A stretch of 64,000 nt of DNA from a bacterium. GTDB lineage: Bacteria; UBP18; UBA7526. The notes under the pieces were generated by a model, which was not told the DNA's origin, made no database searches, and saw only the letters and a list, made by a program, of their open reading frames with translations. Where the stretch lies: NCBI GenBank assembly GCA_030615855.1, contig JAUWYL010000003.1, forward strand, positions 2,384-66,383. The letters run 5' to 3'. The position numbers and the translations under genes are program-made. Shown piece by piece: positions 15,368 to 54,000 of this stretch; the stretch's first letter is position 1; the number at the start of each line of letters is the position of its first letter.

Positions 15368-16276
15368 TTATGCAAGATGCTTAAAAGATTTCAAGAAAAA
15401 GACCTTTCTAAAGTCTTTCTTTATCTTCTTATAAATCTCTTCTGCTTTCTGGTAGTCTTCCGCCAGACCAAAGACTGAAGGGCCAGAGCCACTCATCAAA
15501 GCGCCGCAGGCACCCAATTCCAAGAGCCTTTTCTTTATCTTACCAATTTGGGGATGCCTGGGAATGACCACTTCCTCTAATCTATTATATAGGCTATTAC
15601 CTATTTTCTTTACGTTGCCCGATTTCAGGGCAAACAAAATTATTTTAATACTTTGCGCTTCTTTTGTCAAGTCCTTCAGGTTCTTATTTCTGAGCGAAGC
15701 GAAGAAACAAGGTTCTGACGAAGTCAGGTTCTTATAGGCCCACTCTGTAGAGACCTCAAAATCAGGGGAGATGAGGACAAAGTAAAGGGTTGGGCTCTGG
15801 GGAAGAGGTTTTAGCTTATCCCCCCTACCTTTTCCTAAAACCCTTCCTTTTCTCAAGAAGAAAGGAGCGTCTACCCCTATCTCTCGGGCAAGACCGGCTA
15901 GTTCTTGATAACTTAAACCCAAGTTCCACAACCTATTCAATCCCAGAAGGACACTCGCCCCATTACTTGACCCCCCTCCCAGGCCACTGGCTAGGGGTAT
16001 TTTCTTATCGAGGGTAATCTGGACTCCTCTTTTGATCTTGAGTCTCTCTTTTAAGAGGGAGGCTGCCTGGTAAGCAAGGTTCTCTTTCCCTAAAGGCAGT
16101 TCAGGAAGATCGCTCTTAATTTCTATCTCTTTCTCTATCTCTTTCAGTGTGAGACTATCGAAGAGGTCTACCGTCTCTAGGATGGTCTCCACATTATGGT
16201 AGCCATCCCCTCTCTTTCCCAGGACCTCTAAAAAGAGATTTACCTTGGCTGGTGATTCAATCCTTAGCTCTTTCAA
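15368..16276 (-). CDS. ispE: 4-diphosphocytidyl-2-C-methyl-D-erythritol kinase
   Basis: GHMP-kinase motifs (PLASGLGGGSSNGAS, KVNLFLEVLGKR). Carries an in-frame interspersed-repeat segment encoding ...KNLTSSEPCFFASLRNKNLKDL... Confidence 0.85.
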   Translation of the reverse strand: MKELRIESPAKVNLFLEVLGKRGDGYHNVETILETVDLFDSLTLKEIEKEIEIKSDLPELPLGKENLAYQAASLLKERLKIKRGVQITLDKKIPLASGLGGGSSNGASVLLGLNRLWNLGLSYQELAGLAREIGVDAPFFLRKGRVLGKGRGDKLKPLPQSPTLYFVLISPDFEVSTEWAYKNLTSSEPCFFASLRNKNLKDLTKEAQSIKIILFALKSGNVKKIGNSLYNRLEEVVIPRHPQIGKIKKRLLELGACGALMSGSGPSVFGLAEDYQKAEEIYKKIKKDFRKVFFLKSFKHLA

Positions 16277-18062
16277 GTTCCTTTCTTGCTCTCTTTATCT
16301 TCTGCTTAACCTTCTTATCCTTCTTAAGTTTATAAGACTTCTCCCAAAAATTAAGTGCTTTCTCTAAGAGGCCCTTCTGCTGGTAGGCATCACCAAGATG
16401 GTCGAAGATGATGGGGTCATCAGAGACAAATCCAATGGCTTTCTCTAAGAGTTCTAAGGCCTTCTCATAATTTCCCTTCTGGTAGTAACCCCATCCCAGG
16501 CTATCCAAGAAGTAGCCATTCTCCGGTTCAATCTCCAAGGCCTTCTCCACTAACTCCATGGATTCCTCAAGGTTTATTCCCCTCTCAATGTAGAGATAGC
16601 CCAGATAATTATAGGCATTGGCCAATTTGGGATCCAGTTCTATTGCCTTCCGGAAATTCTCTACCGTCTTCTCGAACTCCCCCCTCTTATCATAGGCCAC
16701 TCCCAGGTTGAAGTGGACCGCTCCATCCTTAGGATTCAAGGAGAGGGATTTCTGGAAAGAGGAGATTGCTTTCTTATAATCCTCTATCCCATTGTAGGCC
16801 AGACCGAGGAAGAACCAGACCTGGGCATTATCTGGTTTTAGTTTGGTGGTCTTCTTGAATACCTTTAGCGTTTTCCTCTTCTCATCTATTTCAGAATAGA
16901 TGTAACCCAGGTGGAGATAGGCCTCTAAGAAGTCCTTCTTTAAGTCGATGACTTTCTTGAACTGGTCCCTTGCCTTCTGATAATCCTTCTTCTCTTCAAA
17001 TAGGACTCCCAGATAGTAGTGAGCCCGCACATCCTCTGGTGCTATTTTCAGTACCTTCTGGAAACCTTCTATGGCCTTATCTACCTCTCCCTGATAGTAA
17101 TAGATCAAGGCTAATCTCTTAGTTACGCTTATCTCCCTGGGATTTATCTCCAGGATCTTTTCATACTGGGAGAGGGCCTCTTTTAGCTTGTTCTGATTGC
17201 AGTAGATCTGGGCCAGGCGGTTTCGGGCAGTGATATTCTTAGGATCCTTCTTCAATACCTCAAGATATGTTTTCTTTGCCTCTTCTGTCTCATCCTTCAG
17301 TTCATATAAGATGCCCAAGGAGAGGTGGGCCGGAAGGTATTCTGGATTGAGCTCTAAGACCTTCTTATAAGAAGCGATGGCTTTAGCAAACTCTCCCTTT
17401 CCACTATAGAGCAGAGCCAGGTTTAAATGGGTACTTGTATAATCCGGTTCCAGCCTCTCAACCTCCTCATAGGAGTCTATTGCTTTTTCAAAGTCCCCTT
17501 CCCTAGCATAGAGGTTCCCCAGGATGAAGTGGGCCTCAGCATAATCCGGCTCCAGATCTATTGCTCTCTGATAGCATTCCCTGGCTCTTTCTATTCTTCC
17601 TTCTTCAATACTTAGGGTTCCTAAGAAGAAGTAGGTCTGGGGGGAGAGGGGATCAGTCCACATGGATCGGCGAAAGAGTCCTCTGGCTTCTTTGAACTCC
17701 TCTATTCTGAAGTAATCCTTCCCTAAGGCGGTGAGGATGGCACTGGAGTCCGGCTCATACTTTAAAGCCCGCTCATACTGCTTGATGGCCTTCTTGAAAT
17801 CACCCTCCTCATCATAGATAACCCCTAGGCTATAATGAGCATAACCTAAGGGATGAGCGATTCTTTTCTCTTCCTTGGGAGGAGTAAATGGTCTCTCTTC
17901 GATCTCAAAGGAGAAGGAAGCAAGGGGGAAGCAGAATAACCAAGAAACAAGAAACAATAGCCAAACAGAGAATTTCCAATATCCCCGCCTGCCAATCGCC
18001 TGAAGGCGATAGCCTGATGGCGGGCAGGCAATACCCAATTTCCAATGATCCGGATTAAACAT
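16257..18062 (-). CDS. tetratricopeptide (TPR) repeat protein with N-terminal signal peptide
   Basis: At least 12 tandem TPR units (AxxYxxLGxxY...). The tracked ORF 16257..18209 over-extends into pckG. The start is placed at the Met before the signal peptide WKFSVWLLFLVSWLFCFPLASF and is uncertain. Confidence 0.7.
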   Translation of the reverse strand: MFNPDHWKLGIACPPSGYRLQAIGRRGYWKFSVWLLFLVSWLFCFPLASFSFEIEERPFTPPKEEKRIAHPLGYAHYSLGVIYDEEGDFKKAIKQYERALKYEPDSSAILTALGKDYFRIEEFKEARGLFRRSMWTDPLSPQTYFFLGTLSIEEGRIERARECYQRAIDLEPDYAEAHFILGNLYAREGDFEKAIDSYEEVERLEPDYTSTHLNLALLYSGKGEFAKAIASYKKVLELNPEYLPAHLSLGILYELKDETEEAKKTYLEVLKKDPKNITARNRLAQIYCNQNKLKEALSQYEKILEINPREISVTKRLALIYYYQGEVDKAIEGFQKVLKIAPEDVRAHYYLGVLFEEKKDYQKARDQFKKVIDLKKDFLEAYLHLGYIYSEIDEKRKTLKVFKKTTKLKPDNAQVWFFLGLAYNGIEDYKKAISSFQKSLSLNPKDGAVHFNLGVAYDKRGEFEKTVENFRKAIELDPKLANAYNYLGYLYIERGINLEESMELVEKALEIEPENGYFLDSLGWGYYQKGNYEKALELLEKAIGFVSDDPIIFDHLGDAYQQKGLLEKALNFWEKSYKLKKDKKVKQKIKRARKELERAKD

Positions 18063-20163: not shown

Positions 20164-20551
20164 ATATCTTTCCATTACTTTCCTTCACTCTTGAAAGGGA
20201 TAAGTAAGAGAGATAATCATGACTAAATAAGAACCTGACTTCGTCAGAACCTTGTTTTGCTTATTGAAGTTCCGATACCTCAAAATAGCCACCAATGATC
20301 AGGATGGGAGCAGTAGTGAGGGAGCCTTTCTAGAGATAGAGAAATCCTAAAGCAGCGATCAAGAGGCCCAGTCCAAAAATCATTAGAGTTTTCTTAGTGT
20401 CTCTCTTCACCCCGCACCTTCCCCTTGCTATAACTAAATTAGTTTAGCATACTAAACTCTGGAATGCAAATAAAAAGAAAAAGCCCCACCAATATCCCCC
20501 TAATATCGAGGGATTCGGGAGAGGCTTTCTCTTTCCTAAAATATTTCTTCC

Positions 20552-21396: not shown

Positions 21397-23396
21397 TATT
21401 CCTTCCTGTGTTTCACAGTCATTCTGAACTCCACGCTTCTCCCCCTTCTACTCAGATGGGCATCGCTCACCGCGACTTCCGTGAAATAGTCTGAGGCCTC
21501 AAGAACCCTTTTGAAGCGATCGACGAGAGAGAAGTCGGGGAGTGAAGTGCTTCCCCTTATTCTGGTCTCGTCCCAGTCAATGGAAAGGTCCTCTAAACTT
21601 ATTTCCAAATCTTGGGGAGTGAGGGAGGAGATTTCTTTCAGGATAGTCAGAGAAGAAAATTCTCTTGGTGAGAGGGCAAGGTCTTCTTCTCTCTTCTCTA
21701 AACTGCTCTTCATCTGGACTAAGGGATCGACAATATTGGTGACTTCAGGAAAGGTTTTTTTGAAGACTAAGCGAATCTCCTTTTTTAGTTTCGCGCTTCT
21801 TTTATTCTTGAGGTAGAGATGGAGATAGAAGTCCAGAAGGCCCAGGAGAAAGATGGAAAGAAGTAGGATGGTGGCTGGCTTAAGAAGGGGCCGGGCCTCC
21901 TCCAATCTCTTGATGAGGGGCTTCTCCTCCCGGATGAAATTAAGGGATGCCCTGGTCCTGGCCATTCCACGCAAGGCAATCCCCATCGCCTGGGGGAGGA
22001 GGGGTCTAGTTTTCTCTAAAGTAGAGCTATCTAGCGTACTAGAGATCTCCCTTAAGGAAGGAGTAAGAAGCTCCTTTAGGCGCAAGAAAAATGGTCTAGG
22101 GAGGGATAGCTTAAAGAAAGGATTGAAGAGAGAGGTTTCTATATTGAGGCTCTTCTGGAAGTATTCAACTATTTCGGGCAGGCGGGCACTTCCTCCAGTC
22201 AATAGGATTTTTTCTATACTCTTATCTGGGTAGAAAGCCAGGAAGGATGAGAAGGTATGCTCTATCTCTTTTATAATTTCATCCAGAACAGGCTCTATCG
22301 CCTTTAACTTCTCCTCATCGAGCTCTTCCCTCTGGGGCAGAGGCCCTTCTGGGCCGGAGGCCCTCTTTAACTTCTCCGCCTCTTTGAAGCTTACCCCAAA
22401 TCTCTCTGCCAAAACCTGGCTGACGTTATCCCCGGCCTTAGGGATACTCCGAGTGAAGAAGAGTCTCCCCTCACTTATAATATCGATTATTGTCTGGCCT
22501 GCTCCAAGATTGATAAGGGCAACGATCTCTTTATCCTCTTTCAGGGCATAGATATTGAAGAGGCTAGTACTATCAAGGTCCACAACCTCTGGCCTAAGCC
22601 CCGCCTTATCCAAAATCCTAAGGTGTTTTTCGATCACTTTCTTGTTGAAGGCAAAGGCTAAGACCAGGGTCCTGTCTGGGAGACGATCATCTACGATATA
22701 GAAATCAATAATCGCCTCTTCCAGGGGAAATGGGAGATGGGGCTCTAACTCATACCTTATTACCTGGCGGATCTTCCTTGAACCCTTAAAGGGCAGGGAG
22801 AGCCTCTTAATTACAGAAGAGGAGGCAGGAAGGGAGGAGATTACTCTTTCTTTTTCTCCTTTAACCCCGCCCATTGGTAAAGGGGCGGGGCGAGCCTGGG
22901 AGAGGAGTTCGGCTATTGTTCGGACAATTATCTCCTCCTCTGCTTCACCCTTCTCTTCCCTGGGAATCTCCTTCTCCCAGAAGTTAAGGAGTCTCACTCC
23001 CCTTCTGGTCTTCAATAACCGGGTAACTTTTATACTATTTGTCCCGATATCTAGGCCCAGGGCCTCTTTCCCTTTTAGGAATTTCTTTACCTTTACTCCT
23101 TTTATTTTCGAACGAAGTGAGAAAACAAGGTTCTTGAGTGTAGCGAAAGGCTTTCTTATTTTATGAGCAAGGCGAATAAAACAAGGTTCTGTGAAGCAGG
23201 TTCTTATTTTGGCCAGACCCTTCTTTATCAGGGGGTTTAACCTATTCCGAACGAAATGAGACATCTTCTGGAAGACGGAAAGAAGAAAGCCTTTTACACG
23301 AAGAAGAAGAGTCTTACTTTTAGTAAAAATAGTGCTCGTTAGTCTCTTCATCCTTCCCATCTTTTCTTTTAGATTGAGTTCCCGAATCTTAAACAT
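21396..23396 (-). CDS. GspL / PilM-PilN-like fusion protein
   Basis: Actin-like ATPase N-domain (LGLDIGTNSIKV...), internal TM helix (LLLSIFLLGLLDFYLHLYL) and a periplasmic PilN/GspL-like tail. The first ~100 codons of the tracked ORF translate interspersed repeats (23100-23220), so the true start may lie near 23070. Confidence 0.55.
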   Translation of the reverse strand: MFKIRELNLKEKMGRMKRLTSTIFTKSKTLLLRVKGFLLSVFQKMSHFVRNRLNPLIKKGLAKIRTCFTEPCFIRLAHKIRKPFATLKNLVFSLRSKIKGVKVKKFLKGKEALGLDIGTNSIKVTRLLKTRRGVRLLNFWEKEIPREEKGEAEEEIIVRTIAELLSQARPAPLPMGGVKGEKERVISSLPASSSVIKRLSLPFKGSRKIRQVIRYELEPHLPFPLEEAIIDFYIVDDRLPDRTLVLAFAFNKKVIEKHLRILDKAGLRPEVVDLDSTSLFNIYALKEDKEIVALINLGAGQTIIDIISEGRLFFTRSIPKAGDNVSQVLAERFGVSFKEAEKLKRASGPEGPLPQREELDEEKLKAIEPVLDEIIKEIEHTFSSFLAFYPDKSIEKILLTGGSARLPEIVEYFQKSLNIETSLFNPFFKLSLPRPFFLRLKELLTPSLREISSTLDSSTLEKTRPLLPQAMGIALRGMARTRASLNFIREEKPLIKRLEEARPLLKPATILLLSIFLLGLLDFYLHLYLKNKRSAKLKKEIRLVFKKTFPEVTNIVDPLVQMKSSLEKREEDLALSPREFSSLTILKEISSLTPQDLEISLEDLSIDWDETRIRGSTSLPDFSLVDRFKRVLEASDYFTEVAVSDAHLSRRGRSVEFRMTVKHRKE

Positions 23397-23531: not shown

Positions 23532-26360
23532 TCACTTCAGTATTTCCTTCGCGGCCCAAACCACGGGTTTGAAATAGAACCTTACCATCTTCTTCAAGGC
23601 TTCTTTGTTCCTTATAAAGTTAGCAACTGGTGGGCTAATTCTGTTATAGAAGGAAATGAAGGCTCTGCCTGCTCTATTGGGCAAAAGATATCTATCCCTG
23701 AATTCACAGAGAATTTTCTCTTCCTCTGCCATCGGTGTTCCATAGGCGGCAGTAGCGATGAGGCAGCCGCCTCCGCCACCTCCTCCGCCTCCGCCTCCGG
23801 CAGGGGCGGCGATGGTGGTGAATTGATAGTAGGAACCACCATTATTATCTGTGGTCTGGTTCTCAACTGTGTCGCTTGAGGTAACCTGATAGTAGTATAG
23901 GGTCGAGGAACTTAAATTAGAGAGGGTAACGGAGTGAGAAGTGGTCTGGGTGGGATCCTGAGTAGTGGAACCAGGGGGAGTGGTAGTTCCATGCTTCACG
24001 ATACTATCACTCGCTTCATCTGTGGTCCAGGTGATGGTGCAGGTAGTGGAACCAGGAGAGGCGCTGACATTAGTTATTACGGGGTCCTGAGCATCTATGG
24101 TAGCGGTGTCGGTTCTCTCTCCAGGAGGGCTGGCATCAGTATAGGTAGCGGTTATGGTATCTCCGTGGGCTACCTGTAATTCTCCGGTACCCGGAGCCTC
24201 CGTAGTCAGGGTTACTGAGCCTTTGAAGCAATTTGTAGTCCCTCCCGTCTCTTCTAGGATTATGGTCTCCGAATCACCAGTAAGAAAACTGGTCATAACT
24301 ACTTCATCAGTGGTAAAACCAATGTCTGGGGTAGTATCTAAATTAGAATCCCAGAGGGTGATGTTTACTTTGGCAGAACCATTATAAACCCCGGCATCTA
24401 AATTGATTAAACCAGTAGGAACAGGTATATGGAAAGGGGTCTCGGGGTCACCGAAGAGGTTGAGAGCAAAGTAGCACCACCTTATCGCTCCTGTGCTGTC
24501 TACAGATCCATCGTTATCTTCTTTTGAATCTTGGTTAATCCTGCCCAGATTGGTTATTCCCTCATCGAATAAAGCATCCCAGAACTGGCGGTCGAACCTC
24601 TGAGAGGCTCCATTGGTGCTTCCCTGGACATACCAGCCATACCTTGAATTCCCCACAAAGGCGAAGGCACCATTGGCTTCGGTGGTGAAGTGTTCCAGGA
24701 TAGAGTCATAATTATAATAATAACTACTGCTGGTACTACGATTGTCGAAGGCTCCGCAGTAACAGCCCTGGGTATAGCCAAAGAAGTAATCGGTATTGGT
24801 CAAGGCATCGACATCCGCGTTGTACATCTTCATATCATAGTTTACATTAGCATGGCCCAGATGGTTTATAACGTGAAGGCCATTATTGATATATCCGGTG
24901 AGGGTGCTCTTCGACCAAAAAGCATCGTAATCATAGAGGGTATTGAGATCGCTGAAGAAGGAACAGTCAGTGAAGCCTTTGGTGGTATAGTAATTAATGG
25001 AGCCAGTTCGAACCTCTTCTTTATAATCCCTTCCCCAGGTTGGGTAACTATCCAGTTTTTCAGCGACCATATAAGCGGTGTGGAGATAATCAGTAGTAGC
25101 ATCCTCATAGGCCAAGGTCTTCTTGACGAAGTTGGAGAGTTCTGTAGTAGAATCAACGGGCGCTCTTCCCACATAGACCTCAGCGTAGAGGTCGATTTCT
25201 CCCCCGTCTACGCCATCGTTCGATTCCCCATATATTCCATCAGCATCGTTGTCAAACGTTCCATCGAGACAGGCATAGTACATATCGGCCGGAATATCGT
25301 TGTCTGCTGGTGTAGGAGGAGAACTTGACACATAGCCATAGAATCCACGATGGGGAATGATGGGTTCTGCCTCCCTCTCGCCATCGGCACTGCCACCTCC
25401 GTCACCGTCCCCAACCAAGAGGATATAATCGGTAGCCCAACCACCTTCAACCACAGGTTTATTGGCATCGAAGATGAAGTTTCGAATCTTGGTCTGATTG
25501 TCCGTTCCTCCATCAGGACGGGTTCCGCTATAGTTGGCATATATCCATTCTGTGGTTACGATATTGGTAGTGATTCCGCGATTGTTCTTACTCTGAGTTA
25601 AATCCTGGAGATCATAGGTTCCGGAGTAGTTCTTGAAAGTATCATTGGTAATGATGACATAATCGTAGGGACCTCCTGACAAGAGAGGGCCACCGTCTAA
25701 GGCGGTCTTAATGGCCCGGGAGTAGCTCTTTGTATCTTGAGGATTATTTACTATCTTCCCGATTACTCTTTCATCCTTGGCTAAACCACGGTATAAGGGA
25801 GGAGCAGTTATTTCGCGGACGGGAATAGTCTCTACCTCAATGGTCATATTTTTATAATAGGAGAGCCTTTTCTCTTGAGGGATATATTCCATAGGATGGA
25901 GGTTGACGGGTAGGATGCGATAACCCCTCTTATTCTGTACGGACTTTGGAGTGTGGAGTTTGCCCGGGAAAGGATTCCTGGATTGATATATTCTCTTATC
26001 CGGTAGAGTCTTAGATACTTTCCCTCTATAACTCAAGGGCACCGGCCTCTGTCCCGGTTCGACGTTATAGGTGCCGGAGAGTTCTATCTTCTGTGCAGGA
26101 ATAATATTTATTCCCTTGACCTTTTGGCCAAAGGGGATGAGGACTTTAACTGTCTTTATGGGAAGGACGGGCTCTCCAGGCTCGCCTATAGTGGATGAGC
26201 CCTTCATACTTATCCTGTGGTATTCACCAACCCTGTTAATCTGGGGAGAGGGGAAGGTTATTTCTATTCTGATGGAATTATTCCTTGCCTGCAAATAATA
26301 AGTTCCACTACTTAGAAGTAGCAGACTGATAATTATTACTAGGATGTTAACTATTTTCAC
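23532..26360 (-). CDS. C25 (gingipain-like) cysteine peptidase with propeptide-like N-domain, FN3/Ig-like domains and CFIATAAY-type C-terminal sorting domain
   Basis: Signal peptide. Candidate catalytic pair in HVINHLGHANV and YTQGCYCGAFD (His-Gly ... Gln-x-Cys). FN3-like segment. G11 linker followed by CLIATAAYG...FRDRYLL...SPPVANFIRNKEALK. Confidence 0.6.
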   Translation of the reverse strand: MKIVNILVIIISLLLLSSGTYYLQARNNSIRIEITFPSPQINRVGEYHRISMKGSSTIGEPGEPVLPIKTVKVLIPFGQKVKGINIIPAQKIELSGTYNVEPGQRPVPLSYRGKVSKTLPDKRIYQSRNPFPGKLHTPKSVQNKRGYRILPVNLHPMEYIPQEKRLSYYKNMTIEVETIPVREITAPPLYRGLAKDERVIGKIVNNPQDTKSYSRAIKTALDGGPLLSGGPYDYVIITNDTFKNYSGTYDLQDLTQSKNNRGITTNIVTTEWIYANYSGTRPDGGTDNQTKIRNFIFDANKPVVEGGWATDYILLVGDGDGGGSADGEREAEPIIPHRGFYGYVSSSPPTPADNDIPADMYYACLDGTFDNDADGIYGESNDGVDGGEIDLYAEVYVGRAPVDSTTELSNFVKKTLAYEDATTDYLHTAYMVAEKLDSYPTWGRDYKEEVRTGSINYYTTKGFTDCSFFSDLNTLYDYDAFWSKSTLTGYINNGLHVINHLGHANVNYDMKMYNADVDALTNTDYFFGYTQGCYCGAFDNRSTSSSYYYNYDSILEHFTTEANGAFAFVGNSRYGWYVQGSTNGASQRFDRQFWDALFDEGITNLGRINQDSKEDNDGSVDSTGAIRWCYFALNLFGDPETPFHIPVPTGLINLDAGVYNGSAKVNITLWDSNLDTTPDIGFTTDEVVMTSFLTGDSETIILEETGGTTNCFKGSVTLTTEAPGTGELQVAHGDTITATYTDASPPGERTDTATIDAQDPVITNVSASPGSTTCTITWTTDEASDSIVKHGTTTPPGSTTQDPTQTTSHSVTLSNLSSSTLYYYQVTSSDTVENQTTDNNGGSYYQFTTIAAPAGGGGGGGGGGGCLIATAAYGTPMAEEEKILCEFRDRYLLPNRAGRAFISFYNRISPPVANFIRNKEALKKMVRFYFKPVVWAAKEILK

Positions 26361-27953: not shown

Positions 27954-27969
27954 CCCTCTTTGAGAATTA

Positions 27970-28003
27970 ATCGGTGAATCGGGGAATCGGTGAATCGGTG
28001 ATT
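27970..28003. repeat. tandem repeat (unit ~9 bp, atcggtgaa / caccgattc) in the gspJ-gspK spacer
   Basis: atcggtgaatcggggaatcggtgaatcggtgatt read directly. Confidence 0.7.
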
Positions 28004-28054
28004 TTCCCCGTTTCTCCCTTTCTCCCTGTCTCCGTTTCATAACCCACTCTCACT

Positions 28055-29575: not shown

Positions 29576-29590
29576 GCCACAAGCTTCTTT

Positions 29591-29638
29591 GTAGCCTGGA
29601 GCCTGGAGCCTGTAACCTGTAGCCTGTAGCCTGTAGCC
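29591..29638. repeat. tandem 8-bp repeat (cctgtagc / cctggagc variants, ~6 copies) between gspG and gspH
   Basis: gtagcctggagcctggagcctgtaacctgtagcctgtagcctgtagcc read directly. Confidence 0.75.
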
Positions 29639-29639
29639 T

Positions 29640-40591: not shown

Positions 40592-40620
40592 TTACGTTAA
40601 TCGGTTACGGTTACTTGTAT

Positions 40621-40735
40621 TAGGAGTGCGGATGAGTTGTGAGTAGTGGGTCGGGGATGAGTTATGAGGGTGAGGTAATAGAACTCAACCCCATCCCCAC
40701 AACTCGACACACAACCCATAACCCACCCTCAACCT
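40621..40735. repeat. second copy of the ~120-bp palindromic element family (see 31488..31606)
   Basis: gagtagtgggtcgggg ... cacaactcgacacacaacccataacccaccctca. Confidence 0.65.
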
Positions 40736-40751
40736 TTTAACCGGATAGCCT

Positions 40752-41207: not shown

Positions 41208-41246
41208 ATTACCCTACTTATATTCGCGACAATTCGTGTCTTGGCG

Positions 41247-42656: not shown

Positions 42657-42699
42657 TCTCTCCTACGGCTTCCATATGACACGAATCTTTATTATGAGG

Positions 42700-42860
42700 G
42701 CGCGCTTCGCTTGCCCCCTCTACTAAGGAAGCCCGAATAACAAGGTTCTCGAGCGTTAGCGAGAGGCTTCCTTATTATGAGGGCGCGCTTCGCTTGCCCC
42801 CTCTACTAAGGAAGCCCGAATAACAAGGTTCTTCCCGCTTCATCGGGAAGGCATCCTTAT
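42700..42860. repeat. tandem duplication of a 78-bp unit carrying the aacaaggttct interspersed-repeat motif
   Basis: ttattatgagggcgcgcttcgcttgccccctctactaaggaagcccgaataacaaggttct occurs twice in tandem. Confidence 0.75.
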
Positions 42861-43085
42861 TTCCTGACCAGGATAGATACGATCCGGGTCTTTGATATTA
42901 TTTTCCTTGGCTAACTCTTTATATTTACTGGCATCACCAAGATAACGTTCTGCAATTTTGGCCAAGGTATCTCCCTTCTTTACCACGTGGACTATCTCTT
43001 CAACCACTGGCTTGAGAACTTCTTCTACTTTCGGAGGAGCTACTTCTTCAGGAACAACCTCTGGTGCCGGAGGCTTTTCTTTTTT

Positions 43086-45020
43086 TCAAGGAGTCTCTTC
43101 GGGAGGGAGAATAAGAATCTCTGTCCCCGGTGGTTCCTCTTCTGGCTCCTCAACCTTCTCAGGCTCTATGGTAATTAGATCCTTCAGAACCTCATATCTC
43201 TTGGCCCCGATGCCCGGGACGCTCCGTAGATCTTCAATCCTTTCATAGGGACGGTGGGCGATGATGGCCAAGGCCTTTACTGGACCGATCCCGGGAAGGG
43301 TCTCCAATTGAGTCCGAGAAGCGGTATTGATATTGATTTTCTCTACGACCCTCTCTGGTTTGACTGGAACCTCGACCTCTTCCTCAGGGATGGACACCTC
43401 TTCCTCTATTTCTATAATCTGGATATCTGAGAGATCCTTCGGTCTTATCTCCAATTCATTAGCATAAGAACCGATCTGACCACTGACTTGAATACTCGTT
43501 CCTTGAACCAGGCTTTCCCTCTCTGGTATGCTCTCATATAGGTCCTTCCAGATAACGACATTTATGGAGCCTGTTCCATCGTCTATCTTTAATGTTCTAC
43601 CCTTCTCCTCTTTGAAGACCCTGACAGATATTATCTTCCCTTTAATGGTCACCCTTTGACCGATGGAGGCCTCGGTTATCTTACCGATAGGAACCAGTTC
43701 CGTCTCCAGAATCTGGATGTCTGAGGGTTTCTTCAGTTTTATCTCGAATTTATCCTTGTAAGATGCGACTCGACCACTGACCTGAATAGGCATTCCTTGA
43801 ACCAGGCTTTGTCTATAGAGTAGGCTCTCGTATAGTTCCTTCCAGATAAGGACATCTATGGAGCCTGTCCCATCGTTTAGCTCTAAAGTACGACCTTTCT
43901 CCTTTTTAAAGATCCTGACAGACATTATTTTTCCTTTAAGGGTTACCTTCTGACCGATGGAGGCCTCAGTTATGCTGCTGATGGGAACCACTTTTTCCTC
44001 AGGAACAGGTACCACTTCTGGCTTCTCAATCTCTTCTGGCTTCTCAACAGGGACTTCTTTAACCGGAACCTCTTCAACTGGGACTTCTTTAACAGGAACC
44101 TCTTCCACAGGAACTTCCTCAATCTCCACTATAGGAGGCTTTTCTTCCTTCCTTTTCTTTGGGCCCCCGAAACGAAAGGTCAGAGTGCCCAGATGGGTCT
44201 CATCGAGGTTATGGTGGGGAAGATAAGCATAATCAAAGGAGAGGAATCTATTCCTCAATCCCCATCCTACCATCCATCTGCCGGGATTATTAGCCACCCC
44301 GGAGCGAAGGAAGAGATACTTCAGCCAGTGGTATTCCAGGCCTAATCTGAACTCGTCATCCTCCTCTTTCTCCTGCTTCTCATAGTGATAATCTACTGCC
44401 AGGATTAAGTCGGGGTCTGGTCGATAGGCGATCCCTCCCGCATACCTCTGGGGGAGGTCGTCACCGATATGGGGGGTATTAACGTTACCTCCGAATAAGC
44501 CAAGGCTCAACTTCCCGTCCAGGAGTTTATATAAGAGTCCTAAGTCCCCTCCATAATCGAACTCCTTACCTACAGTCTCGATCTCGAGACGGAGGTACTT
44601 GGCATTTCCCCCAAGATAGATATCCTGTTTCTCAAAGGTGAACTTCCTTCCATAGGAGAAGATATAGGCATCTTCTCTTAACTTCCTGTGGCCATAATTA
44701 GTCGTGGCCAATCCAATGGTACCCAGCCTCCCCATAGGCAGAGCGAGATTTCCTAACTTATACTCTAAGTCCTTCTCCCCATAGAGCATGGTATAGCTTC
44801 CAGATAATTCTATCATTTTCAATTGTCCCAGACCCGCCGGATTGAAGTAGATGGCACTTGAATCATCTGCCACAGCAGTAAAAGCCCCTCCCATACCCCA
44901 GGCACGGGCAGAAGAGGGCCTCTCCTCAAATATAGCCCAAGCCGAGACAGTGAACAGTGAACAGTGAACAGTGAACAGTGATAAAAAAAATAAAATAAAA
45001 AATAATCGCTTAACCTTCAT
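43086..45020 (-). CDS. modular outer-membrane / surface protein: FadL-OmpP1-like N-domain, VPVEEVPVKE repeat linker, two OB-fold domains, C-terminal ComEA-type HhH
   Basis: N-terminal WGMGGAFTAVADDSSAIYFNPAGL. Linker (VPVEEVPVKE)n. Two ~90-aa OB units (ITEASIGQKVTLKGKIMSVRIFKKEKGRTLELNDGTGSIDVLIW...). C-terminal ININTASRTQLETLPGIGPVKALAIIAHRPYERIEDLRSVPGIGAKRYEVLKDL. Confidence 0.6.
   Translation of the reverse strand: MKVKRLFFILFFLSLFTVHCSLFTVSAWAIFEERPSSARAWGMGGAFTAVADDSSAIYFNPAGLGQLKMIELSGSYTMLYGEKDLEYKLGNLALPMGRLGTIGLATTNYGHRKLREDAYIFSYGRKFTFEKQDIYLGGNAKYLRLEIETVGKEFDYGGDLGLLYKLLDGKLSLGLFGGNVNTPHIGDDLPQRYAGGIAYRPDPDLILAVDYHYEKQEKEEDDEFRLGLEYHWLKYLFLRSGVANNPGRWMVGWGLRNRFLSFDYAYLPHHNLDETHLGTLTFRFGGPKKRKEEKPPIVEIEEVPVEEVPVKEVPVEEVPVKEVPVEKPEEIEKPEVVPVPEEKVVPISSITEASIGQKVTLKGKIMSVRIFKKEKGRTLELNDGTGSIDVLIWKELYESLLYRQSLVQGMPIQVSGRVASYKDKFEIKLKKPSDIQILETELVPIGKITEASIGQRVTIKGKIISVRVFKEEKGRTLKIDDGTGSINVVIWKDLYESIPERESLVQGTSIQVSGQIGSYANELEIRPKDLSDIQIIEIEEEVSIPEEEVEVPVKPERVVEKININTASRTQLETLPGIGPVKALAIIAHRPYERIEDLRSVPGIGAKRYEVLKDLITIEPEKVEEPEEEPPGTEILILPPEETP
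44944..44985. repeat. tandem cagtgaa(ca) repeat inside the signal-peptide coding region (encodes FTVHCSLFTV)
   Basis: gtgaacagtgaacagtgaacagtgaacagtg. The same k-mer family forms intergenic tandem repeats at 1533-1561 and 10423-10448. Confidence 0.7.
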
Positions 45021-45085
45021 CTATTCATCTTTCCCTTATCTGTGATCTGTGTCCATCTGTAATAAATCTGTGCCAATCTGTGTTC

Positions 45086-45949
45086 TCAAAAGGCGAGGCC
45101 AAAGCCCAACCGATGGACTCCTTTCTCCGTTGCCCGGCGATACTGATAGGCATAATCTATCTTATAGTCTATTCCTCTCCTTGTTATGATCTTTATTCCC
45201 AATCCTCCTGTGGGATCATCGTGATAGCCTCCAGCCCGAAAGGCAAAGTACCTGCTTAGCCACCACTCCATACCAAAGGAATGCTCAAGTCCTACGAAGT
45301 TTTCTAAGTCATAGATATCGTAGGCGATGAGGATCTTCTTATGGGGTCGAAAGGCAATTCCTGGTCGCACATTCATCCTCCTCAATACCCCAAAGACTTT
45401 AGGCTCATTCACATCCTGAGCTAAGAGACCAGCGCTGAACCATCTTATCGGTCTATAGTGAAGGCCGAGGTCTAAGGAGAGATCATCTTCCGTCTCTTCA
45501 GAGACTCCGCTTGTCTTATGCCGGGCATCAATAAACTGGCCTCCCGCACCTATGGAGAACCCCCTGAAGATTTCCTTTCCCCAGGAAGCACCATACTGGT
45601 TTTCCGGCTCAGACCACCCTCTGCCTCTATAGCCGGCATTCAAGAAGTATAATCCCCAGGCACCATACCTCCTATCCGGCTCAGCATAGATTACCGTATC
45701 ATCATAATCTATCCTGTCCCTTTCTGCGTTATTCACAAGAGAACTAATCGAAAAGTCCCTCTTTTCTAATTGTGATAATCCCGCTGGGTTATAGTAGACA
45801 GCATTCGCATCATCTGCTACAGCAACCGCTGCCCCACCCATGCCCATCTGCCGGGTACCAACCTCAGCATAACTAACCGCAGTGAACAGTGAACAGTGAA
45901 CAGTGAACAGTGAAAGGACCAAGAGTAAAAATTTAAATATGTTCTTCAT
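45086..45949 (-). CDS. outer-membrane beta-barrel protein, FadL/OmpP1-like (paralogue of the N-domain of 43086..45020)
   Basis: 287 aa. MGMGGAAVAVADDANAVYYNPAGL. Ends in aromatic-rich RLGFGLAF. Same repeat-encoded signal peptide LSLFTVHCSLFT. Confidence 0.55.
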   Translation of the reverse strand: MKNIFKFLLLVLSLFTVHCSLFTAVSYAEVGTRQMGMGGAAVAVADDANAVYYNPAGLSQLEKRDFSISSLVNNAERDRIDYDDTVIYAEPDRRYGAWGLYFLNAGYRGRGWSEPENQYGASWGKEIFRGFSIGAGGQFIDARHKTSGVSEETEDDLSLDLGLHYRPIRWFSAGLLAQDVNEPKVFGVLRRMNVRPGIAFRPHKKILIAYDIYDLENFVGLEHSFGMEWWLSRYFAFRAGGYHDDPTGGLGIKIITRRGIDYKIDYAYQYRRATEKGVHRLGFGLAF

Positions 45950-46021: not shown

Positions 46022-49000
46022 TTATTTTCGTATTAACTTATTCGCTCCCCAAACCAATGGCTTCAATCCTGCTCTAACTACTGCCTTGAGTGGTTCTTTA
46101 TCTCGGATGAAGTCCGCAATCGGTGGCGAAATTTTACAGTAAGTAAGAACAAATGCCCGACCTAAGGGATTAGTGAGCAGATGCTGGTCTCGGAACTGCC
46201 GCAAAGCCATTATTTCAGGAGGACAGTTTAAAAAGTTGGTTAGTTGGTTAGTTTTATCCGTGCTAATCCGTGATTTTAATCCGTGCCTATCCGTGCAACT
46301 GCTGTAAGCAGCAGTAGCAATAAAGCATCCTCCACTCCCTCCACCACTCAGAGACTTGCCCACTGTGACCGTAGTCGTTGCCTCAGTGCTCGAGTTTCCA
46401 TCTTCAGCAATGGCCTTGATATAAATGGTGTAGTAACCTATAGGAACAGAGTCGCCAGAACTGTTCTTCCCATCCCATTTTGTAGAGAAACTATCTGCAA
46501 TATAATACTTATCTTCCCCTAAGGTTTTTACCACCCTTCCCCTTCCATCGAGGGCCTGAATGGTGACCTCAGACTCCTTATTAAGAGTGAAGGAGATCTT
46601 GGTATGTCTCCGATTGAGGTCGCTTCCATCCGATAGGAAGGGATCTTCAGAGACTCCTAAACCCCTGATTCCCACTCCAGAAGGCATATCCGCATTATTT
46701 ACCTTCCCTCTGGTAGGAGAGGAACAGACGCTCCAGTCACTATTTGCATTGGTATCACTTGAATCAGCGTCACGGGCGATGGAGTCATTAGCATCGACTG
46801 TAGTGCTATTAAAACAGTCAGATTCTGCCAGAGAAGCCCCAGCAATCTTCCATTGTTCAGGATCAGCATCTACTAATGCTTGGACATCTGCTTCCTCACC
46901 AGAACCCCACGTCCCACTTTGATCTGCCCAGCAAACAGCATCCTCAATATTCCCCAATCCATCCTTGAAGATTACCTGTTCATCTGTAGAGGTCAACCCA
47001 GTATCATGGGCCCAGATATTGATGATTCCATCCGAACCAGCAGTGAGTTCATCCATCCAGTAACTCATCCCATTAGTAAAGATCTCAATATTTCCCCTTC
47101 CTGTAGGAGCCCCGGTCCGTGAACCAGTTCCTGTGCAGTAGTAGGGAATACTTTTAGCCGACAGACGATCCAAACATTCAGTAGTCGGATGGTTATAGGG
47201 GTTGGAGCCGGTAGAGATGACGGCCTTATCCGGATAGACATAGGTGAGGAAGTTACTTGAGGTGGCATATCTAGCGCCATGATGGCCTACTTTTAAGATA
47301 TCGCTCGTTAATCCTATCCCATACTTACTGATCAGGTTCTCCTCCACCTCGAATCGGGGATCATTATCATGGCAGGCAGAGGATTCCGCATCACCAGTGA
47401 GCATAAAGGAGACATTCCCGTAGGTAAGGTAAATAACAATGGAACTATTATTCTTATAATCGGTTCCTTCCTCTTCAGTTGCTCCTGGCCAAGGACTGGT
47501 AGCATGGGCATTGAGCACCTTGGCAGTAATGTTATAGTCTTCATCCCAGGTATAGGTCTGGCCAACGGTGGGAACGATACCCGGAATATCATTGACATCT
47601 GAGATGGTTGGGTAACCCAACTCATTCTTTACCGCGGTAACAAAGGCATCGGTATAATAACTCTCTGGCTGGCCAGAGAGCCAGATGGCCTCTACTGTCT
47701 TATTATTTAAAACATCTGTCAGGTCACCATAATGGTCGCTATCCGCATGGGTAGCGACCATACGATGGACAGTAGTAGAGACACCCACTTTATCAAGATA
47801 GGAATCAACGATTTCCTTATTTGGGTTTCCTCCATCGATTAAGATATTTTCTCCTCCCGGAGTCTGAACAAGAATGGAGTCCCCTTGTCCTACATCAATG
47901 AAGGTGACGGTCATGCAGCCTGAGGCTGGCTGGAGGACTAAATATTCCCCGGTCTTTATTGTTGTTCCCTTGGCGATGGTCTTTATTGTTCCATCATCTT
48001 CAAAGTAGCATTCCCCGATATCTACTCCGCTTCCATCGCTGGTTCCATCAGCCTCACAATATAACTCTACCCAGTCCTTGCTGCCTGAAGCATTAAACGA
48101 TACCTCATTTATCTTAATGCTTACATCCAATTCTAAGGAAGAGGGGTTCTTCTTTCCCTTGGTAGGGGTAGTAATAAGATTCCAATCGCTCTCCTTATGG
48201 GTATCCGTTGCTCCAGAAGCATTATCTCTTCCTAAAGACTTTCCCTTTGCCCCACTCGTCCAGTTGGCAGACTGGCCTTCCTGAGTCTCATTACTGTAGG
48301 TATCCTCATCCCCGGCATCGCCAATCCATTGACGGGGACTGAGACTATCATCCGCTATCCTGTTGAAGGCCGTACGCTGGGTGCCTGCCCAGGTGCCATC
48401 CCTCTTGGCCAATGATACAGCATCGATGATGTTTCCCGAAGGATCCTCAAGGATAATGACATTATCCGTTCCGGTAAGACCAGAATCCGTGGAATAGAAG
48501 TCACGATAGCCATTCCCATTGGTATCGCTATCCACCTCATCCGCAGTAGGGTCCTCCGGGTCATCCCTGAGACGAAGGACGATATACTCATCATCAGACA
48601 TAGTATAATCTGGAAAGGTCTTGATATAGGCGCTTCTTTCCAAGACTCTCCAGGAACCGATATTCTGGGTTGTTCCCGAGACATTATGGAACTCAATCCA
48701 CTCTGGGGTATCCTTGGTAGCAATCTCATTAATCAATATACTGCCTGGGTCTCCCTCATCTGGAGCAGTAGTATTTGTTGCTTTCGGTGACCCTCTTTCT
48801 GTGGCCCCGGCATCCCAGTTAGTAGTTCCTTCTTCATTGGCAGTATACCAGTTCTTGGCCTGCGTACCATCCCCGGGGGTGCTGCGACGCTCCATAGAAT
48901 ATTTCTTATCATTGTCACCTGCTAAAGGTGTTGAACTATCACCAGCGGTATCATAAAGGATATCGCCATCCGTGTAGAGTTTTATCTGAAGAGTGCTATT

Positions 49001-50290: not shown

Positions 50291-50307
50291 CCTGCACCTT
50301 TTGATAT

Positions 50308-51083: not shown

Positions 51084-54000
51084 TTCTCTTTGCTCCCCAA
51101 ACGATCGGTTTCAGATAGAATCTCACCATTGCTTTCAGTGGTTCTTTATCTGAAATAAAGCGAGCAACCGGTGGACTAAAGCGACAGTAGAACCTCACAA
51201 ATGCTTTTCCCAGGGAATTAGTCAAGAGATGCTCATCCCGAAATCTCTGCAAAACAATAATCTGTGATCTGTGTGAATCCGTAATAAATCTGTGTGAATC
51301 CGTGCCGCTGCTATAAGCAGCGGTAGCGATGAAGCATCCCCACTTCTCTGAGGTGCTCTTCGCCTCTTCCTTGGCAGCTGCCGGGGTGGTAATGGTAACC
51401 ACGGGAGTGCTCACCTCGGTGTCCGGACTTGATGAATATACCCCCCACAACTGTATGTAGTAGGTCGTTCCTCCTGAGAGACCAGTAATGGTGGTGGAGG
51501 TCGTCGCCCTGGTAGCCAGATCAACATCATTACTATCATCCCAGTAACTGGTTGCCTTGTTTTCCACTTCAGTTCGATTGGTCCCATAATAGATGCGGTA
51601 GCGGAGAAAGTCCTTATCTGAAGGAGTGAAGGGCGTCCAGGTCAACTTGCTACTTGAGGATTTCGATTCGCTCTCCTGGACATCGGCCAAACCCACAGAA
51701 ACAGAAGCAGTACCAGAAGGAGAAGTCGTCTCATTACCAGCGTTATCCATTGCCCATATTTTAGCATAGTAGATGTTAGGTGAGGTTAATCCTGTAACGA
51801 TAGTTGAAGAGGTATCTATATCTGTCTCTTCCTTTTTAGTGGCTCCTTCTGGCGAACCCGTATTGTCCTTATCCTGCACCTTTGTCTGATCCTTCCCATA
51901 CCAGATTTCATAGTGGCTGAAGTAGCTCTCTGTGCAGGCCGTCCAGGAGAAAGTAATACTCGTTGAAGTAGCAGAACTTGCCTTGAAATCCGCCAGACCA
52001 CTGGGAACCACATTATCTATGCCAAAAGGAGTACCAGGAGAAGAAGCCGTATCCCCCATATAACCATAACTACCATCATCCGCGCCATCATTGGCCTTCA
52101 TCCTGAAGTAAACCGTGTCATCTTCAGTAGTGGGAAGATCAGTTGCCGTAGCCCAGGTGATGGTCTTCTCGCCTGGAGTGCCGATAGATTCCTCGGAGGC
52201 TGGGTCAGTAGAAGCGGTATGCCAATCTATTTCATCTCCGGTGGTAGAATACTCTGGATACCCAGTGCAGGAGTGACTATCGGCATCTATCAAGGTATAG
52301 GAAATCTCCCAGTCTCCTCTTTTCCAACTGGGAACCGGTGACTCAGTAATGTTTATTAAAGGAAGATTATTGTCGGTTACCTCAATACTAATACTGATAG
52401 CCGAGGTATAACCTGCACTTGAGTCGGCATCAATCTGTATGGTTTCCCCGGTATCATAATATATGCCGCTATAACTGGCCACCCCACTCACAACGTCTTC
52501 TGTAAGGGCGTCATTAGGTAATAAGGCACCAGCACCGGCGTGAAGTGCTAAGATAACGGTACCTATGGCAGCGGGGGTCACATTACCATAGGTATCCTTT
52601 ACGCTCACCTTTGGCTGGGTAGCAAAGGGGAAACCGACGATGGCCGCATCCGATGGTGGAGTGGTAAAGTCTAATTTATTGGGATTATCAGGATCGACAG
52701 CAATATTCGTTGAGGTCCCATTAATTGCTCCATCATCGGCCTTAATCCAGGGGGTCTCTCCTGCGTTATAGAGAGTGAAACCAGATACCGTTGCCACACC
52801 ATTCGCGAAGGTCTGGTTCCCATCAGCCGGCTTGGTCGGGTCATTAACGCCTATGGCAGTAGCGTTCCAGGTCCAGGTAATGTAATGAGAACCAGTATAA
52901 TCGGTGACCGTAGTATCGTCTTGCCTCTGAGCAGTAACCGTAACTGAGAAAGTAGTTCCCGCAGTCTCAGTTCCAGAATGCTCGGTCACTACACTGAACT
53001 TGGTGGCCAACCAACCACCTGGGGGTTCTCCGTCAGAAAGCCAGGCAGCACCCAAAATCAATCTTTCGCCAGTAGCCGCATGTCGGGTTAGTCCTATAGC
53101 TATCCCGCCATTAGTAGTCCCTTCTCCAGCGCCGATCACATAGGAGTGGCTGATTTTTGTCCAGTCAGCACCATCTAAATCGGTGACACCCGACTCATCT
53201 ATACCACCAGCATGCTCAACCCCTACTTTTACCTTACCAGTTCCTTTTGCCCAGACCACCACATAATAGGTTTTGCCCACTTCTAAATCTTTACCTAACT
53301 GCTTTAGATAACGCTCATCAGAATATGGTTCATGGGCAAAAGAAGCCTCCCCGACTAAAACCTCATCTGGGTCAGTAGTTCTTTCACCTCTATTGCCCCA
53401 GGTGTATTCATCAGGATCACTACCGGTAATATCATCAAAAAATTCGTTGTATAGGTAATTCTCTCCTGCTTCAGGATGGGTCTGGAAGGTCTTGATATCC
53501 CCATATGCATGATCGCTGTCATATTCTACAACGCCTCTAAACTGATATTTGGTCTTTTTACTAAAACTCGGAGTAGCGGTATGTGAGCCAGCTACACCAT
53601 AAGGTGTGTAGGTTGTCTCATTATCGGTTATGCTGCCTGAACTTTCCCCCCATTGAAAGTAGACATCAACAGAAATCTCCTCCCCCATGGTAAAATCACA
53701 GTTAAGGGTAGCGGTAGTAGTCCCGATGCTTGAGGCATCCTGAGTGGTGACTGTAGGATAAGGGTAGGTGCCTGTAGTAGTCCAGATAATTTCGTCCGTA
53801 ATGACCTTTCCCTCTGACCTATTGCCGATACACTTAAATACCACATTATTGCTTTCACTTATGGCAGTCAATGCCCCAGCCACCAGGGACCCATAGGTAC
53901 CATCAGTGGCTGAGTAATAAGTCTGATCAACAGGAAGAGCACCGACATCGATTACCGTTGTCAGATCAGAGTAGGCACCCCCATCAATACTATATTGGAA

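Follow-up and report, generated by a model that had tools for sequence, protein, structure and literature searches.

The stretch of DNA examined here, hereafter the window, comprises 64,000 nt of contig JAUWYL010000003.1 (assembly GCA_030615855.1, positions 2,384 to 66,383 of the forward strand) from a bacterium of the UBP18 lineage, and its subject is short repeats that stand in frame inside genes: in ispE, in gspE, in the C-terminal sorting domain of CFI-box-CTERM surface proteins and in the signal peptides of two PorV-like outer-membrane proteins. The genome is saturated with several unrelated short-repeat families, which are mainly intergenic and are gained, lost and resized quickly. Close relatives differ from each other by presence or absence of a repeat, by its copy number and by different repeats at one and the same site. 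The explanation that we consider probable is that repeats turn over fast and that selection spares those copies that keep the frame, lack stop codons and lie in permissive loops, linkers or leader peptides.

Gene content and repeat load of the window

The minus strand holds nearly all genes of the window. Among them are housekeeping genes (dnaB, rplI, ssb, rpsF, ychF, an H+-pyrophosphatase, pth, rplY, prs, glmU, spoVG, ispE and the phosphoenolpyruvate carboxykinase gene), a type II secretion/type IV pilus-like cluster (pilM-gspL, gspM, a C25 peptidase, pseudopilins, gspF, gspE, a secretin and gspC), several ComEA-like HHH/OB-fold proteins, two PorV-like outer-membrane proteins and three CFI-box-CTERM surface proteins. 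A transposase, RAYT or IS200/IS605-like TnpA gene was not found among the approximately 46 window open reading frames (ORFs) scanned with Pfam or NCBIfam. The nearest assemblies are the metagenome-assembled genomes (MAGs) GCA_030616365.1 (CSMAG_2684), from which the loci L002 and L082 derive, GCA_030619985.1 (L207, syntenic over about 15 kb) and GCA_021733565.1 (L208); the window and all of its relatives are metagenome assemblies and as such consensus sequences.

Tandem Repeats Finder reports approximately 100 arrays in the window. Once arrays with a period of 5–11 nt and at least 2.9 copies are merged, 29 of 42 fall outside long ORFs, in a fraction that makes up 14.4% of the window (P = 1.5e-15), and an array is present in 24 of the 33 intergenic segments of at least 40 nt. 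At least four families can be distinguished, namely (i) head-to-tail heptamers and octamers with many different unit sequences, the heptamer arrays being direct repeats; (ii) CACGGAT/CACAGAT boxes with a period of 10–11 nt, typically arranged as a four-box unit of two pairs, CACGGAT itself occurring at 30 sites that are mostly clustered into arrays; (iii) an AT-rich hairpin array that repeats about every 48 nt and has TTCTTAT/AACAAGGTTCT boundaries and mini-hairpins with a GAA loop; and (iv) GC-rich hairpin units. Only the AT-rich hairpin family folds better than its shuffles (z = -2.85 to -3.64), with no such excess for a CACGGAT array (z = 0.08) or for the array in GspE (z = -0.11 and -0.10 on the two strands). 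Rfam holds no family for any repeat of the window nor for 16 metagenome loci.

The repeats that the original prediction had placed in ispE, in the CFI-box domain, in GspE and in the signal peptides are all present where it located them, and its central claim, that intergenic-type repeats lie in frame and are tolerated inside genes, is borne out by empty or differently filled sites in relatives for ispE, GspE and the CFI-box linker.

The insert in ispE

The host gene, at 15368..16276 (-), encodes a 4-diphosphocytidyl-2-C-methyl-D-erythritol kinase (TIGR00154, 253 bits against a cut-off of 138.7), the product of which matches solved structures down to E = 4e-37. A small hairpin element, AACAAGGTTCTG-N7-CAGGTTCTTAT, occurs in three mismatch-free copies in the window (5741, 15706 and 20227), where shuffled sequences lead to an expectation of 0.00, and the copy at 15706 lies inside ispE and is translated as KNLTSSEPCFFASLRNKNLKDL. 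The two other copies are intergenic: 5741..5770 (+), an exact match inside the 689-nt segment 5125-5813, and 20227..20256 (-), which is identical to the ispE copy at 31 of 31 positions on the complementary strand (100%). Both fold well (z = -2.85 and -3.06, respectively), whereas the ispE copy in its coding context folds weakly (z = -1.16). A multi-hairpin array of the same family occupies intergenic DNA at 42686..42870 (+), with TTCCTTAT/AACAAGGTTCT boundaries and an 83-nt direct repeat whose copies are 98% identical; its part 42740-42870 reaches z = -3.64, with none of 200 shuffles folding as well. Degenerate copies of the element are found at 5657-5734, 23100-23220 and 42686-42870. Of the intergenic copies proposed originally, those at 5741, 20227 and 42686-42870 are intergenic indeed, but 23100-23220 is not clearly so, as it lies in the pilM ORF.

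Within ispE, an in-frame insert of 48 nt at 15688..15735 (-) encodes TSSEPCFFASLRNKNL and is flanked by a direct duplication of ATAAGAACCTGA. It equals one period of the AAGAACC-bounded hairpin array, and since the ATAAGAACCTGA boundary belongs to the repeat period in the intergenic arrays, the insert amounts to exactly one array period. In a 95%-identical ispE allele from another sample, L001 (DNA alignment, identity apart from indels), a clean 48-nt gap stands at this site, where ACAAGAACCTGA is present once, in comparison to ATAAGAACCTGA on either side of 36 nt in the filled site of the window. The 12-nt duplication ATAAGAACCTGA is the conserved boundary of an array period and may reflect either the target-site duplication of a MITE-like transposition or a homology-seeded insertion. 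The 48 nt are also absent in L207 and L209, and the nearest of 25 aligned close homologues (P0002) is without the 16 residues TSSEPCFFASLRNKNL. Alignment with orthologues that lack the inserts, which had been proposed as the way to define their boundaries, delimits the 48-nt segment here by means of L001 and two 33-nt blocks in GspE by means of L002.

The 25 close homologues reveal at least three insertion sites with differing inserts. The site that is filled in the window carries other GC-rich inserts in other relatives (ACPPKL...ERRRDL), L001 has a 30-nt GC hairpin (TCTGCCCGCCGAAGCCTTGGCGTAGGCGGG) at a second site and a third site carries CPPSLPARSCLAVAGGRSGVSRR in relatives. At the 3' end of L001 ispE, 24 nt of an ATCAGA-type repeat are read through: in L001 (926-949) and L207 the stop codon is replaced and the ORF runs into the repeat (GCATCAGAATTTCAATCTGATACT), which makes the gene 8 codons longer (ASEFQSDT). 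More distant ispE matches are labelled Omnitrophota, NPL-UPA2, Nitrospirae and Acidobacteria. Solved IspE structures possess an indel-rich region at the position of the insert, and in the AlphaFold model of the window protein (mean pLDDT 87.7) the pLDDT drops below 50 only at residues 187-207, which are the insert.

That disruptive events happen too is indicated by L209 (JGI 3300028837), in which ispE (2250-3007) has suffered a frameshifting deletion of 103 nt that ends at insertion hot spot 1, its downstream end being the hot spot where other relatives have GC-hairpin inserts. Possible readings of this gene copy are a pseudogene, a variant within the population and an error of assembly.

The ispE site also provides evidence favourable to the alternative that the inserts are not translated at all, but are excised from the mRNA or passed over by the ribosome. 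Translational bypass is known from phage T4 gene 60 and from the mitochondrial 'byp' elements, and identical AAG AAC CTG codons, possible take-off and landing sites, bound the ispE insert, with a hairpin next to the first of them. However, the inserts characterised on the DNA level (48, 30, 24, 33+33, 12, 30, 33, 36, 69 and 87 nt) are all multiples of three and stop-free, which neither bypass nor splicing needs, the direct arrays are devoid of secondary structure and the sole out-of-frame event seen, the deletion in L209, breaks the ORF in the ordinary way. Bypass or splicing is therefore very unlikely.

Repeat units in GspE and pilM

In GspE approximately five tandem GC-rich units of 16-21 nt (GCCTCYGGCYCRGAGRG) at 33591..33681 (-) encode ASGSEEPLARREGALPRREGPPAQRASGPE between the two CxxC pairs, so that the interval from CPKC to CPFC reads KGSAP-ASGSEEPLARREGALPRREGPPAQRASGPE-GVLW; Tandem Repeats Finder delimits the same units at 33589-33681. 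Solved PilB/GspE structures have essentially no counterpart to this segment and their alignment breaks at query residues 474-514. The orthologue L002, with 79% amino acid identity, has one unit (EGTLPRRE) in comparison to approximately five in the window and is without two 33-nt blocks, 33649-33681 and 33591-33623. The location of the array between the two Cys pairs is as predicted. The assignment of the array as a repeat of intergenic type, on the other hand, is unproven, as no intergenic copy of the unit was found in the window, the sole other copies being two units in pilM at 22329..22360 (-), ASGPEGPLPQRE, which alignment to solved structures assigns to a variable loop with a 4-residue gap in the PilM of M. 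xanthus.

The pilM ORF contains a second repeat at its 5' end, where about 2.5 periods of the AT-rich hairpin array at 23100..23220 (-) are open in the pilM frame (KIRTCFTEPCFIRLAHKIRKPFATLKNLVFSLRSKIKG). There is no in-frame ATG, GTG or TTG between this array and the PilM core KKFLKGKEALGLDIG, and the PilM profile begins at ORF residue 112. As judged from the reading frame, the array is probably a translated N-terminal extension of pilM and not intergenic DNA.

As a separate observation, GspE homologues in Brocadiia, Planctomycetota, Armatimonadota and Elusimicrobiota MAGs (L034, L040, L052 and L080) measure 2.4-2.6 kb in comparison to about 1.7 kb, which suggests large insertions in the ATPase, possibly inteins.

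The linker of the CFI-box-CTERM domain

The sorting domain NF041770 (CFI_box_CTERM) is recognised in three proteins of the window with 73.4, 73.5 and 85.1 bits against a cut-off of 40 and over profile positions 1-69 of 69 in each; a literature search found no paper that uses the term CFI-box. The 69 profile positions span 92 aa in a 1422-aa protein, 79 aa in a 1094-aa protein and 69 aa in a 942-aa protein, and the difference resides in one linker. Among 61 of 120 database matches to the domain, those in which both bounding motif patterns are present, the linker has 10 aa in 56, 7 aa in four and 41 aa in one. The third paralogue of the window, the C25 peptidase, possesses the short uninserted linker GTPMAEEEKI that had been noted originally, a canonical 30 nt at 23712..23741 (-) in a domain of 69 aa; it contains CACCGAT, one mismatch off the CACGGAT box.

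The linker of the 1422-aa protein, 46205..46303 (-), extends over 99 nt and contains four CACGGAT boxes (46256-46295, spacing 10/13/10) together with an octamer array of CTAACCAA (46234-46253). In the 1094-aa protein the linker, 51253..51312 (-), has 60 nt with a CACGGAT/CACAGAT composite at 51261-51304 (GTDSHRFITDSHRSQ), which matches the intergenic composites 61954-61998 and 61032-61065 at 80-85%. Both inserts resemble intergenic copies in the window: the four-box CACGGAT element at 5773..5811 (-), spacing 10/12/10, its sister copies at 11798-11836, 58448-58486, 61004-61048 and 4200-4216, and the CACAGAT composite at 45038..45084 (+), which matches 61952-61998 at 89% and is of the family of the 1094-aa protein insert.

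The same linker varies beyond the window, with lengths of 30, 42, 42, 60, 63, 66, 99 and 117 nt and four different repeat contents: it has 63 nt in L082, 66 nt in L084, 42 nt in two paralogues of L085 and 117 nt in L086, where it consists of three arrays (GAGTTCG x4, GGAGAATC x4 and CCGTGTCC x3). The window, L082 and L084 share one 39-nt element, ACGGATAGGCACGGATTAAAATCACGGATTAGCACGGAT, which resides in this linker in a different gene of each of the three genomes, and other arrays are found in the two L085 paralogues, in L086 and in P0125. Since the same or other arrays occupy this position in four related contigs, the site is a hot spot of the lineage. The C25 peptidase gene of L084, which carries the insert, lies in a secretion neighbourhood similar to that of the uninserted C25 gene of the window, so that probable orthologues differ here. 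Orthologues of the 1422-aa protein were not found, every search match being confined to the CFI-box domain, and the empty-site argument accordingly draws on the profile of the domain family as well as on the other CFI-box genes with their paralogues and orthologues. The original description, two insertions at the same position, is right in that both linkers hold arrays; it understates the pattern, while two independent insertions are unproven, as three genomes share the 39-nt element.

With these data, the alternative that the segments are ordinary lineage-specific coding sequence, or that the intergenic copies derive from coding ones without any insertion, can be assessed. The peptide TD(R/S)HGLKSRISTD is shared by the CFI-box proteins of three related genomes, and the signal-peptide arrays (see below) are shared with orthologues, both of which this alternative would predict. 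It is at odds with the empty ispE and GspE sites in near-identical alleles or orthologues, with the C25 peptidase linker that is canonical in the window but element-bearing in its L084 counterpart, with the canonical 10-aa linker in the large majority of family matches and with array periods of 7, 8 and 10 nt that are unrelated to codons. The same segments in orthologues from distant taxa, which the original prediction had named as evidence for ancestral sequence, are not seen: alignments to solved structures are without them, and 56 of 61 CFI-box linkers are canonical. Ancestral coding sequence is hence a highly unlikely explanation.

Misassembly, by which repeats would have been joined into genes, deserves mention as all sequences are metagenomic and repeats are its classic cause. 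The same kinds of insert, though, appear in independent NCBI, ENA, JGI and Logan assemblies, they are exactly in frame with the flanking codons intact and one sequence, P0123, was recovered identical from two sources, which renders an artefact extremely unlikely. Repeat turnover filtered by selection remains the preferred account.

Signal peptides and leader peptides built from arrays

Two PorV-family-like outer-membrane proteins (NF033709, 58-62 bits, under the 90-bit cut-off) have a 7-nt repeat, thus with a unit that is not divisible by three, in their 5' coding region. (TCACTGT)x5 forms the hydrophobic core of the signal peptide at 44947..44981 (-) in a 644-aa PorV-like/ComEA-like protein and at 45880..45914 (-) in a 287-aa PorV-like protein; on the opposite strand the repeat is ACAGTGA x5.0 with 100% matches at both sites, and it encodes SLFTVHCSLFTV, which corresponds to residues 12-25 in either ORF. 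In orthologues with 76-77% identity a heptamer array is found at the same place. Each of the two sites has five units in L085, where the orthologue of the 644-aa protein shows four identical units and that of the 287-aa protein two identical and three mutated ones, such that the unit number is constant at five in the window and L085 with point changes only; L086 has a TCACTTT/TTACTTG array at the site of the 287-aa protein. The signal peptides of distant homologues have the same length, and a scan of metagenomes with the 287-aa protein gave no match. Because the peptides are of normal length and the array is kept in orthologues, these arrays are not insertions; the claim that tgttcac repeats encode both signal peptides stands, but not their listing among inserted elements. 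They represent a hydrophobic core built from the repeat and not an addition. Apart from the start, methionines in frame are confined to the conserved GMGG core, so that the arrays are translated, provided that the proteins are exported.

Leaders built from arrays are also seen in GspK-, GspJ- and GspH-like pseudopilins and in the hydrophobic N-terminus of a TPR protein. In the GspK-like ORF two octamer arrays (CACCGATT x4 and GGGAGAAA x4.5) at 27969..28038 (-) make up the first 24 codons upstream of the prepilin-type motif QRG|MALV, the only in-frame upstream start being the ATG at 28040. The heptamer arrays GGCTACA x7 and GTGGCTT x4.6 at 29553..29639 (-) take up the spacer between gspG and gspH and can be read in the gspH frame as far as G|FTLIEL, with an uncertain start codon. 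A GC-rich hairpin, CCTGCCCGCC...GGCAGGCGGG, at 17978..18023 (-) is open in the reading frame of the TPR protein near its 5' end, is absent in the syntenic loci L207 and L208 and is of the type of the ispE hairpins of relatives; it was dropped as a clean further case, as the 5' part of this ORF is unconserved between relatives and its coding status is uncertain.

Two further observations concern the 644-aa protein. A 15/30-nt tandem repeat at 44040-44122 encodes (EVPVE/KEVPV)n and is an ordinary in-frame coding repeat with a unit divisible by three, in contrast to the 7- and 10-nt arrays. Furthermore, the protein is a fusion of a PorV-like barrel with a member of the family of ComEA-like secreted DNA-binding proteins encoded at 40212-43993 and 61448-63918, which combine HHH_3 with an OB-fold, in some with LysM, and whose paralogues share 169-300-nt repeats on the DNA level (D1-D3; identity 63-96%).

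CACGGAT arrays beyond the lineage

The four-box CACGGAT pattern was recovered in at least 120 metagenome contig stretches, with a GC content of 0.27-0.72 among the matches listed, a range that indicates many unrelated bacteria. Typically the arrays read (CACGGATGAA)n or (CACGGATAAA)n, in many cases with inverted copies after them, and high-GC contigs contain a recurring dispersed unit, AAACCTTTGGAA-CACGGATGAACACGGAT-AACN-ACGGATGAACACGGAT. In-frame four-box arrays occur in L092, L152, L156, L098, L177 and L164 (GC 0.34-0.62), with gatB-, pgk-, rplI-, aminotransferase-, PLP-enzyme- and membrane-protein-like ORFs as hosts. Relative to solved structures the array adds a net 6 aa in pgk and a net 5 aa in rplI (L9), where the array-encoded His-Gly aligns with a native His-Gly; the GatB, aminotransferase and PLP-enzyme cases were judged by translated sequence alone. 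A literature search with CACGGAT array strings found no matching paper.

These data allow the tentative and somewhat doubtful proposal that the 10-nt-period CACGGAT array is a distinct, apparently undescribed cross-phylum element, either spreading or serving as a binding-site array for a conserved protein, which would settle in frame in conserved genes and then be kept constant in nucleotide sequence by DNA-level selection or by repeated conversion from other copies.

Separately, L170, L173 and L135 contain CACGGAT arrays beside hairpins like those of the window (ttaggacgacgcgctttgcttgcctcgtctaaat; ccctgcctgccggcaggcagg) and probably represent further relatives of the window organism.

Repeat turnover and selection versus a DNA-level function

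According to the favoured explanation, new copies would arise by replication slippage, template switching or ectopic recombination and may be seeded where a gene already resembles a repeat boundary, in line with the empty ispE site ACAAGAACCTGA, which matches the element boundary, the CACCGAT of the canonical CFI-box linker and the native His-Gly of rplI. Selection within genes would purge copies that shift the frame, add a stop or hit the structure. The survivors would be stop-free copies with a length divisible by three in loops at the protein surface, in linkers between domains and in leader or signal peptides that are cleaved off, presumably translated as low-complexity peptide, with NLTSSEPCFFASLR in ispE, EGALPR/EGPPAQR in GspE and ISTDK/HGLK in the CFI-box linker as predicted insert peptides. 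In the signal peptides and prepilin leaders the arrays are the coding sequence itself. All inserts seen have a length divisible by three and no stop codon, and the occupied sites are permissive: the low-pLDDT segment of ispE, the loop between the zinc-binding CxxC pairs of GspE and the CFI-box linker that is variable in the family (7, 10 or 41 aa). Protein remodelling by repeat turnover is a known kind of event; its density here is unusual.

The strongest rival is a DNA-level function, of protein-binding boxes or of phase-variation tracts. Intragenic repeats would be kept for a function in DNA or RNA, CACGGAT as binding sites phased at 10 bp and the 5' heptamer arrays as slippage-based on/off switches, and selection or gene conversion would preserve them. 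The 39-nt element is 95-97% identical (37-38 of 39 nt) among the window, L082 and L084, in comparison to 64-67% for the flanking domain DNA, and 11-12 of its 13 third codon positions match, in comparison to 40-52% in the flanks (P = 1.5e-4 to 1.1e-2). Constraint on the peptide alone is insufficient to explain this conservation. The four-box layout of two pairs with 10-bp spacing recurs intergenically and in the metagenome contigs, and perfect (TCACTGT)5 in two paralogous signal peptides has five-unit counterparts in both L085 orthologues. Each 7-nt unit gained or lost shifts the frame, and the affected genes encode surface, secretion and pilus components. Yet this rival names neither a binding protein nor a regulated gene set, the arrays match no Rfam family, the many unrelated unit sequences at equivalent positions argue against one specific factor and ispE, pgk, rplI and gatB are implausible targets of phase variation. 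A DNA- or RNA-level function as the general reason for the intragenic repeats thus appears rather improbable.

Several points nevertheless weigh against turnover with selection as the full account. The conservation of the 39-nt element is unlike that of passive neutral repeats and, as far as sequence comparison can tell, points to DNA-level constraint or ongoing homogenisation, while the perfect signal-peptide arrays with five units kept in L085 at 76% protein identity suggest more than drift. The rule that inserts are stop-free multiples of three is partly due to ascertainment, since an ORF must be intact to attract notice or to enter a protein database. Seeding relies on three examples, in one of which, CACCGAT, the sequence stands one base out of frame relative to the inserted boxes, and that the inserts are translated is deduced from their open reading frames.

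If turnover with selection holds, the window shows non-coding repeats becoming protein sequence in a free-living uncultivated lineage, the textbook cases to date having come largely from Rickettsia and Neisseria. A consequence for annotation is that gene callers and domain models will misplace start codons, split domains or give too low a score to proteins with linkers and leaders built from repeats. The CFI-box linker offers a natural map of insertion tolerance in a poorly understood sorting domain, which is useful for tagged constructs. If the nucleotide conservation and the cross-phylum spread of CACGGAT are true, they point to a DNA-binding factor or a propagation mechanism not yet known.

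Other features of the window

A group I intron (RF00028, 81.9 bits, full-length model) at 38156-38393 on the minus strand splits a tRNA gene in its anticodon loop. The halves read GCTCCGGAGTAGCGCAGTGGTAGCGC... and ...GGTCGGGGGTTCGAATCCCTCCTCCGGAGCCA, the whole locus extends over 38108-38430 and presumed splicing would yield the loop CTGTAAC with the anticodon GTA; ARAGORN alone misses this tRNA. Small accessory genes are interspersed among the housekeeping and secretion genes at 14324-14713, 31646-32678, 50308-50874 and 55828-56313, and comprise a 23S-rRNA-IVP-family protein gene adjoining tRNA-Gln, a HEPN and nucleotidyltransferase pair and two DUF6036 nucleotidyltransferases.

Comparison with known repeat systems

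The Rickettsia palindromic elements (RPEs) and the Correia elements (NEMIS) of Neisseria are short dispersed hairpin repeats, mostly intergenic, sometimes in frame at tolerated surface positions and variable between relatives, and the ispE insert behaves in the same way. RPE and Correia units have 100-150 nt, terminal inverted repeats and a short target duplication. The ispE element, being a period of about 48 nt of an array with a duplicated boundary ATAAGAACCTGA, is likened to them by behaviour, not by sequence. The analogy to palindromic elements that had been drawn for all repeats thus suits the ispE case, but three of the four cases (CFI-box, GspE and signal peptides) are not palindromic: the CACGGAT, heptamer and GspE arrays are direct tandem arrays, with z about 0 for CACGGAT and GspE.

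The CFI-box and signal-peptide cases belong with the heptamer and long simple-sequence repeats, of which the STRR sequences of Cyanobacteria, heptamer repeats as well, are one example. Occasional intragenic copies at protein termini are on record for such repeats (Mrazek et al. 2007, as cited in PMC4679880) and for the TAACTGA repeats of Beggiatoaceae, Cyanobacteria and Bacteroidetes (MacGregor 2015, PMC4679880). In common with these systems 7-nt tandem units dominate, are overwhelmingly intergenic and often just upstream of start codons, and the few in ORFs are mainly at protein termini. The window differs by many coexisting units instead of one dominant heptamer, and arrays are found here also in internal linkers of a conserved domain (CFI-box), as they are in pgk, rplI and gatB of other bacteria known from metagenomes. 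Whereas TAACTGA read forward contains a stop codon, the fixed positions of the CACGGAT unit are free of any.

In the opa genes of Neisseria, phase-variable CTCTT pentamers lie in the region encoding the leader peptide. The PorV-like proteins are similar in that they, too, are outer-membrane proteins whose signal peptide owes its hydrophobic core to a tandem unit not divisible by three, and differ in that the orthologues keep five units and diverge by point changes. REP/BIME sequences, described by Di Nocera et al. (2013, PMC3733652) as mobilised by RAYT transposases, are comparable as small (20-40 nt) high-copy hairpins clustered in intergenic arrays, though the ORFs scanned in the window include no RAYT or IS200-like gene. 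In relation to all of these systems, what is new is the occurrence of several repeat families together in one free-living lineage, the hot spot in a conserved sorting domain and the conserved, widespread CACGGAT array.

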